IMG/VR virus record: IMGVR_UViG_2923350032_000005 | Span: 1 to 40,702 of that record | Length of the DNA stretch: 40,702 nucleotides | Reading direction: 5' to 3' (one strand) | Source of the DNA: a virus | Lineage: Duplodnaviria > Heunggongvirae > Uroviricota > Caudoviricetes | Shown: positions 1,149 to 1,963 of the stretch, piece after piece | Numbering within the stretch: the first letter of the stretch is position 1 | How the letters are laid out: every line of letters starts with the position of its first letter | Made by a program: the position numbers and the translations under genes | Notes under the pieces: model-generated | The model's database searches: none | The model's input: the letters and a program-made list of their open reading frames with translations, nothing else | Told to the model about the DNA's origin: nothing

Positions 1149-1721
1149 CCAATTTAACTGAAACCAGGATGAAGTATATGTATATAAAGTTCACTTTGCC
1201 AAACTTCAGTATAAAAAACCACTAAAAATAGGGTGTGATAAAAAATACCGTAACAATAAAGCAAAGGATTATAAATTCCGTTACAGTTACAAATGATACT
1301 CAAGAAACAATTCCTTAGGAAAAACTTATTTACAGCCAATAAGTAAGACACTTATATGATATCAAGTTTTCATAAAACATAACTAGGCTAAATAGCTGCG
1401 CCTAATACCGCTACACTTTTGCCAGCCCATGTTTGCCTCCGGGTATTGACCCCTTCTCTACGCAACTTCAGTTCCCACCACCAACTTTGCGGCAGCTTTG
1501 TAGGATCAATGTCTAAAAGAATAATGGTGACCGATAAGAAAACGACTGAATAACTGCAGATTTTCGCTCGAAACCTTCCTGTCAGATCCATAGCGAATCA
1601 AGTGCTGAATGTCACAGTATCGAACAGAAAACAGTGACGATCTAACCCTTCAAGAATATTCTACGATTGTTCTGTTTAGGAAAAGCAAGGCGGGAAGTCG
1701 GGAGATAAGTCATTGATAAAG

Positions 1722-1787
1722 TGGCGGAGAGAGGGGGATTTGAACCCCCGGTAGAGTTGCCCCTACTCCGGTTTTCGAGACCGGTCC
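1722..1787 (-). tRNA. Truncated tRNA-Ser (serU-like) 3' fragment, 66 nt from anticodon stem to CCA; no 5' half. Probable integration-site (att) remnant
   Basis: Reverse complement reads GGACCGGTCTCGAAAACCGGAGTAGGGGCAACTCTACCGGGGGTTCAAATCCCCCTCTCTCCGCCA, which matches the 3' two-thirds of E. coli tRNA-Ser(CGA) as I recall it. The upstream sequence does not continue into the D-arm or acceptor 5' strand. Confidence 0.65.
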
Positions 1788-1963
1788 AATCATCAAACGA
1801 AACATAAAATTAATTCACATTATGAGGAAAAGTATCTTTTTTGTACTATGTAAATTCAAAGACTTAGCCTCATTTCCCCGATGGTTTTCTCAACACTACT
1901 GGTTGTGAGCCCTTGCAATGTTCATTAATATACGTCTCACAAATAATTCATAGATATTGCAAA

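Follow-up and report, generated by a model that had tools for sequence, protein, structure and literature searches.

The window, meaning the whole 40,702-nt stretch of caudoviral DNA analyzed here, comes from the chromosome of Escherichia coli isolate 602 (NZ_OW968111.1; L001, whose position 20001 is window position 1). Its left part carries the remnant of an IS3-family transposase gene, an AraC-family regulator gene and the end of an IS630-family element, followed by a chromosomal spacer, a 3' fragment of the tRNA-Ser gene serU, a short phage-derived segment (the X arm), a gene with a LEM-3-like GIY-YIG domain and a pinE-type invertase gene (Table 1). The IS3 fragment begins ~81 bp left of the window, where it is annotated in RefSeq as "integrase core domain, missing N-terminus" (L001 19920-20354). 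At the right end the integrase gene (int, 38081-39244) lies beside an intact thrW, as an earlier note on this sequence had described, with proA beyond it.

Table 1. Features of the window that bear on the serU fragment and on the ends of the prophage.
Feature	Position	Strand	Basis or remark
C-terminal fragment of IS3-family transposase (rve/rve_3)	1-354	plus	Pfam rve_3, E=7e-17
AraC-family transcriptional regulator, AT-rich accessory gene	396-1139	minus	Pfam HTH_AraC/HTH_18; annotation
TA target dinucleotide and terminal 53 bp of IS630-family element	1389-1443		92.7-98% identity to 3' ends of IS630-family transposase genes
E. coli chromosomal spacer directly downstream of serU, towards yodB (278 bp)	1444-1721		Identity to serU loci
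serU 3' fragment, tRNA-Ser(CGA), 66 nt	1722-1787	minus	Alignments; core of past serU attachment site
X arm, phage arm of past serU attachment site, upstream of GIY-YIG gene	1788-1963		Homology to MB15 and ST64B
LEM-3-like GIY-YIG domain gene	1964-2737	plus	Pfam PF22945, E=2e-14; last gene before past attachment site in serU phages
pinE-type DNA invertase, then invertible tail-fibre region	2798-3352	minus	Annotation; same order in MB15, remnant in ST64B
xis and int, SfV/SfIV type, P22-related	37854-39244	plus	DNA identity, ORFs; Pfam Phage_integrase, E=3e-48
Right copy of 56-bp thrW att core	39249-39304		Overlaps 3' part of intact thrW; partner at L001 19586-19641
Intact thrW	39259-39334	minus	Found by ARAGORN and Rfam

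The serU fragment covers the tRNA from a point slightly 5' of the anticodon stem through to its 3' terminus, with the CCA end at 1722; all 66 nt are identical to the 3' part of serU, and the 5' 24 nt of the gene are missing. It forms one end of a 344-bp block (1444-1787) with 97.7% identity to the serU locus of K-12 (E=1e-168), and it is located between the GIY-YIG gene and the AraC/IS segment; the length, serU origin and placement previously given for it are thus correct. The fragment is not a working tRNA. ARAGORN, when applied to the window, calls thrW only, as does Rfam at the gathering score, and a permissive Rfam scan returned only a sub-threshold tRNA-Sec match (29.7 bits vs. a gathering score of 47). 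Neither a second serU core nor an intact serU is found in the window, and scans of positions 1-3400 for promoters, terminators and repeats gave nothing above chance. A 67-aa ORF at 1388-1591 (minus strand), which is without a Pfam match, was considered as a gene and set aside as unlikely because it crosses the joint between IS630 and host DNA. With no sign that it acts as a tRNA, attP, promoter or terminator, the fragment is best regarded as a neutral passenger that may aid recombination.

The current boundaries of the prophage are defined by thrW. In NZ_OW968111.1 the thrW 3' end is repeated exactly over 56 bp (TTGATTTTAATGGTGCCGATAATAGGAGTCGAACCTACGACCTTCGCATTACGAAT) at L001 19586-19641, equivalent to window positions -414 to -359, and this copy matches 39249-39304 over its full length. 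The earlier note had reported that the left end lacks a thrW repeat; this holds within the window, where no second copy of the core was found even with up to 3 mismatches allowed, and fails ~360-415 bp beyond its left edge, so that a repeat which the note had itself named as decisive against its reading exists at the true left end. The apparent boundary anomaly arose because the window was cut before this repeat. Outside the left repeat lie a yagP-like LysR pseudogene (yagP') and paoD-A, the usual far side of the thrW insertion point. Together the repeats enclose 39,663 bp (one core copy counted), a prophage of ~39.7 kb, with copies at both ends as in a current att repeat, whereas the cassette holding the serU fragment adjoins an intact serU in none of 5,426 complete E. 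coli genomes. Since the left repeat lies beyond the AraC/IS segment, both this segment and the serU fragment are inside the prophage, whose left boundary is not at the fragment. The resident prophage is therefore a single, complete, normally bounded SfV-type thrW lysogen in a chromosome that is not rearranged. A comparable tRNA 3' fragment is ptwF, the pseudo-tRNA from the 3' part of thrW that lies at the distal end of CP4-6 in E. coli K-12; its equivalent, the left thrW repeat, adjoins yagP' in the source genome. Both ptwF and the serU fragment correspond to a distal att repeat, but ptwF is a current boundary repeat whereas the serU fragment is obsolete, derives from another tRNA gene and travels inside a mobile phage genome. 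Annotation pipelines should accordingly be cautious, as tRNA fragments within prophages need not be element boundaries.

Elsewhere, in O157:H7 FRIK944, a P4-like satellite (L012 2348-13433) stands in tandem at thrW, directly past the IS3'/AraC end of an SfV-like prophage, and carries integrase, primase-helicase, polarity suppression and Ogr/Delta-like genes as well as an ABC-three-component defence-like system. Tandem elements thus do occur at thrW in other strains.

The integration module in use is of the SfV/SfIV type. Across int, xis, core and arm, the prophage shares 99.6% DNA identity with SfIV, 98.9% with SfV and ~80% with P22, and the 125-bp P arm next to the left thrW repeat is laid out as in SfIV/SfV attP. 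The Shigella serotype-converting, thrW-integrating phages SfV, SfIV and SfII resemble the window phage in int, xis, att core and P arm (98.6-99.6% identity), in tail and baseplate genes (94-97% identity) and in general layout. In contrast, where the interval from attP to the tail fibres holds the gtr genes for O-antigen modification in SfV-type phages, the window phage has a segment composed of the IS3 fragment, the AraC gene, the IS630 fragment, the serU scar, the GIY-YIG gene and pin. No deposited phage genome combines a thrW-type int, attP and this cassette; the records have either the SfV-type module or the cassette, never both.

The sequence to the right of the serU fragment belongs to phages that integrate at serU. 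Positions 1444-3433 match the integrase-distal junction of the serU prophage of MB15 without interruption at 96.8% identity, and 1706-1870 show 73.5% identity to the attP of Salmonella phage ST64B, which is located between int and a pin remnant. A chimeric query made of K-12 yodB and the full spacer followed by window 1444-2740 was matched over 100% of its length at 98.8-99.3% identity in MB15, BS15R-A and RMDEC332, where the true serU locus reads zinT, yodB, spacer, serU 3' fragment, X arm, GIY-YIG gene, pinE and tail fibres. Q5 and PM4 have the same serU junction with different tail modules. The MB15 prophage is complete, with an intact serU and a tyrosine integrase (83% identity to ST64B Int) at its other end, and its attL and attR share a 68-bp exact repeat that corresponds to window 1720-1787, i.e., the 66 nt plus 2 nt downstream.

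Beyond this junction, the window phage is collinear with the MB15 prophage at 96-98% identity from 1444 to 37537, just short of xis/int, through the tail, head, lysis and early genes with a few segments replaced. The two integrases, however, are essentially unrelated, the serU-type Int of MB15 showing only 31% identity over 58 aa to the window Int. From this collinearity, combined with the unrelated integrases, the window phage is judged to be the MB15 phage type with another integration module, in which the former distal junction has been retained. A recombination of phages that differ in integration module, as had been proposed earlier, is borne out in this form, as an MB15-like body carrying an SfIV-type int module (99.6%).

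The GIY-YIG gene adjoins the serU att site in phages with different tails, including SfV-like myoviruses (MB15, Q5) and a phage with lambda-like J/Lom/Stf genes (PM4), and is found on the plus strand of the window as well as at L006 4343-5116, L007 6689-7462 (Q5) and L008 6693-7466 (PM4). The LEM-3-like gene is a conserved, putative att-proximal cargo.

To the left of the fragment, the DNA is chromosomal. The spacer is 97.7% identical to the serU locus of K-12 and 99.6% identical to that of WP8-S18-ESBL-07, and matches to this flank occur in 5,404 of the 5,426 complete E. coli genomes, nearly all at the serU locus; on these grounds we rejected a phage arm to the left of the fragment, and with it an intact attP. 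In some E. coli lineages (Q5, L007; PM4, L008; WP8-S18-ESBL-07, L017) zinT is followed directly by the serU spacer, without yodB, and at the polymorphic sites 1507, 1531 and 1574 the scar flank has the alleles of Q5 and PM4, not those of K-12.

The spacer ends abruptly, 278 bp past serU, against the IS630-family fragment. The true end of that element, with its TA, lies at 1389-1390, immediately to the left of which three unrelated contexts lose their similarity, and the element is truncated internally at 1443. A TA at the 1443/1444 joint was considered as an IS630 target site and rejected, as the IS630 terminus is at the opposite end and the joint is internal to the IS. Because the element is cut internally there, the 1443/1444 joint is, on the alignments, an illegitimate (non-homologous) junction. 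The same IS630-family terminal fragment also occurs in the espM/nleG effector regions of PPompW prophages (L009 2489-2543), which suggests that the AraC segment originated in an accessory locus littered with IS remnants, of the type seen at EHEC/EPEC lambdoid prophage ends.

The AraC-family protein (WP_000246059.1) is the same RefSeq protein as that encoded in O157:H7 FRIK944 at the matching thrW locus (L012 14396-15139). It is probably PatE, the product of z0321 on OI-8, a prophage-encoded activator of acid resistance and repressor of the LEE (PMC10877973). With the IS3 fragment, the IS630 fragment, the host flank and the core, this gene makes up a cassette of 1.87 kb (window -82 to 1783) that is present at 99.1-99.4% identity in the lambda-like phages ev099, PhiR70_1 and mEp332, so that the AraC gene travels with the serU scar in SfV-like and lambda-like phages alike. 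The deposited genomes of cassette-bearing phages list E. coli C and K-12 MG1655 as hosts. In ev099 the cassette lies between lambda-type int/attP and the side tail-fibre genes, and its homology begins at L001 19918. In all three phages homology stops at 1783, within the core, past which the arm resembles that of the serU prophage SerU-LTIIb, whose pseudo-tRNA has the same host spacer and then yodB after it. The alleles 1496C, 1499T and 1500G are common to the window and ev099 and absent from the five chromosomal serU alleles aligned, and the shared joint together with these alleles fits one capture event.

The cassette is widespread. We found the 1443/1444 joint in 535 of the 5,426 complete E. 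coli genomes (~10%). In 413 genomes the X arm linked to it is of the window type and in 101 of the ev099 type, while the AraC region was present in 644 of the 5,426. The ~109 genomes with AraC and no joint are, as far as sampled, later IS1 disruptions, in lambda-type prophages at bioA-ybhB or at thrW, and no precursor with the AraC/IS630 region before it joined the serU flank was found. Inversion or excision products, in which the cassette would adjoin an intact serU and mtfA, were likewise seen in none of the 5,426 genomes, and the inversion isomers previously envisaged were not encountered. That the tRNA-Ser fragment might be part of conserved phage sequence had been listed beforehand as evidence against a present junction, and the lambda-like phages and the frequency of the joint demonstrate that it is. 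The scar can serve as a marker for tracing movement of the AraC gene between SfV-like and lambda-like phages.

Taken together, these results make it very probable that positions 1444-1963 are a fossil serU junction, integrase-distal and of the attR type, from an ST64B/SfV-like phage that once resided in E. coli serU, and that this junction came to lie inside a thrW phage through an illegitimate join and a module swap. Its core is the att repeat of the live MB15 serU prophage, one of its arms has homologues at the integrase-distal end of serU phages, and the other arm is chromosome downstream of serU; the fragment does record a past integration at a tRNA-Ser gene, as had been suspected. We take the junction for a fossil and not an active one because it is at the wrong locus, in a prophage between proA-thrW and yagP', and the window encodes no cognate serU-type integrase. 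The host DNA contiguous with the att junction, moreover, ends at a novel non-homologous joint, as expected of aberrant excision.

Two known systems help to place the scar. The serU attR junctions of ST64B/SfV-like phages (MB15, ST64B) share with it the core, the order of phage arm, GIY-YIG gene, pin and tail fibres, and the host spacer, but the window scar sits inside a thrW prophage instead of at serU, has no matching serU-type integrase, and has a host arm that ends after 278 bp at the IS630 fragment. The specialized transducing genomes lambda-bio and lambda-gal carry a hybrid att junction with host DNA on one side and a novel non-homologous joint to phage DNA, and have lost the original int end. 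The hybrid junction, the contiguous host DNA, the novel joint and the loss of the int end are all common to the window scar. In contrast to those genomes, the scar belongs to a natural, widespread lineage (the 535 genomes and the phage isolates above) in which integration was regained through a foreign int/attP, its captured host DNA is non-coding, and its joint lies in IS debris beside an accessory regulator.

The earlier interpretation, in which two elements presently meet at the fragment, in tandem or fused, one of them a tRNA-Ser island or the remnant of a prophage (the AraC/IS segment) and the other a thrW prophage without a left att repeat, drew on the lack of a thrW repeat within the window and on the AT-rich, IS-filled character of the AraC/IS segment, and the tandem satellite at this locus in O157:H7 would lend it some plausibility. 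We consider it very improbable, however, in view of the 56-bp repeat past the AraC/IS segment, which places that segment in the prophage, and of the SfV-type P arm adjoining this repeat exactly where an SfIV/SfV attP would have it; in addition, the AraC/IS segment and the fragment are carried together by lambda-like phage genomes, and a separate element would have neither an integrase nor a second serU core. There is hence one prophage here and not two elements. Scarcely any weight can be given to the idea that the region is an intact, usable second attP that offers the phage serU as an alternative integration site. In its favor are a complete core that does not differ from the core of a live serU prophage, and an authentic serU-phage arm on one side. 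The arm on the other side, however, is host DNA, matched in thousands of genomes by the chromosome downstream of serU, and its match to the attL side of MB15 stops ~9 bp past the tRNA end. The window encodes no serU-type integrase, its SfV-type Int being essentially unrelated to that type, and the cassette-bearing prophage end is joined to an intact serU in none of the 5,426 genomes.

A further possibility is that the cassette was captured at least twice independently, having once been chromosomal, 278 bp from serU, and been taken by aberrant excision into an SfV-like and a lambda-like serU prophage in turn. This would account for the same cassette abutting two different authentic serU-phage X arms, and a common host lineage would also produce the shared joint and flank alleles. 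The proposal appears unlikely nonetheless, given that no sampled chromosomal serU locus has the cassette, that it is never found beside intact serU/mtfA, and that two rare events plus two replacements of the integration module would be needed where one capture and homologous exchange in the 344-bp patch needs fewer. The occurrence of one cassette on two authentic serU-phage arms is most simply explained by later homologous exchange in that patch.

For the fossil junction that we favor, the following history can be proposed. An ST64B/SfV-like phage would first have resided in serU, in an E. coli strain whose spacer was of this allele; WP8-S18-ESBL-07 has a chromosomal allele with 99.6% identity to the window flank. 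Illegitimate recombination, either a lambda-bio-type aberrant excision or an event between prophages, may then have joined the spacer, 278 bp past serU, to an internal point of the IS630 remnant beside the AraC (PatE-like) gene, thereby trapping the old junction and a piece of chromosome in the phage genome with the loss of the serU-type int/xis. Integration would from then on have depended on a foreign module, here SfV/SfIV-type int/xis/attP for thrW and in the ev099 lineage a lambda-type module, which would place the scar at a depth of ~1.8-2.2 kb in the prophage, on the stretch from the thrW attR to the tail-fibre end. The cassette could subsequently be re-joined to other late regions by homologous exchange across the 344 bp that it shares with any serU-resident prophage junction, with Int-mediated exchange as an alternative for the switch of arms at the core. 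Single-step aberrant excision alone does not account for the thrW- or lambda-type module, and at least one further recombination is needed. We infer the order and mechanism of these events, which would connect the observed identities and bounds of the segments, the thrW ends, the near-identity to MB15 and the cassette in other phages; since no precursor was found, this applies in particular to the mechanism behind the 1443/1444 joint.

The 344 bp of host-identical sequence probably serves only as a patch of homology, a candidate role. More tentatively, the 344-bp junction might act as a portable recombination patch by which the AraC cassette, along with the integration module linked to it, is grafted onto late regions of serU prophages, a proposal that we would regard as possible but rather doubtful. 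Were it true, it would explain how one cassette occurs with virions of two unrelated types, an SfV-like myovirus (413 genomes) and a lambda-like siphovirus (101 genomes), and behind two integrase specificities (thrW and lambda attB), and the sequences would show directly that accessory-gene loci and the exchange of modules in wild temperate phages are seeded by aberrant excision. Scars of tRNA-fragment att sites, aberrant excision and the swapping of integration modules in mosaic temperate phages are all established ideas, and literature searches returned no description of this serU scar. The scar is a well-resolved new instance, notable for its cleanness and for an ancestral state that is still present at serU. 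It offers a clean natural example of a long-assumed process, in which a phage takes up att-adjacent chromosome and then switches integration specificity by module swap.

Several minor observations concern the related prophages. In the pin-controlled tail-fibre segment (3379-4879), positions 3419-3632 and 4198-4510 align with MB15 (L011) on the opposite strand, consistent with an invertible host-range switch that is in its other state or carries other cassettes. The MB15 prophage also has three hypothetical genes between the intact serU and the integrase (L011 8183-10434), an unusual position for cargo on the int side. Finally, the end consisting of the AraC gene, scar, GIY-YIG gene, pin and tail genes is present on a circular 64-kb record annotated as "plasmid unnamed3" of strain MS 69-1 (NZ_CP146678.1, L016), where integrase pseudogene fragments precede it, and the MS 69-1 chromosome has another copy of this end; the record may represent a tandem element that has excised, a phage-plasmid or an artefact of assembly.
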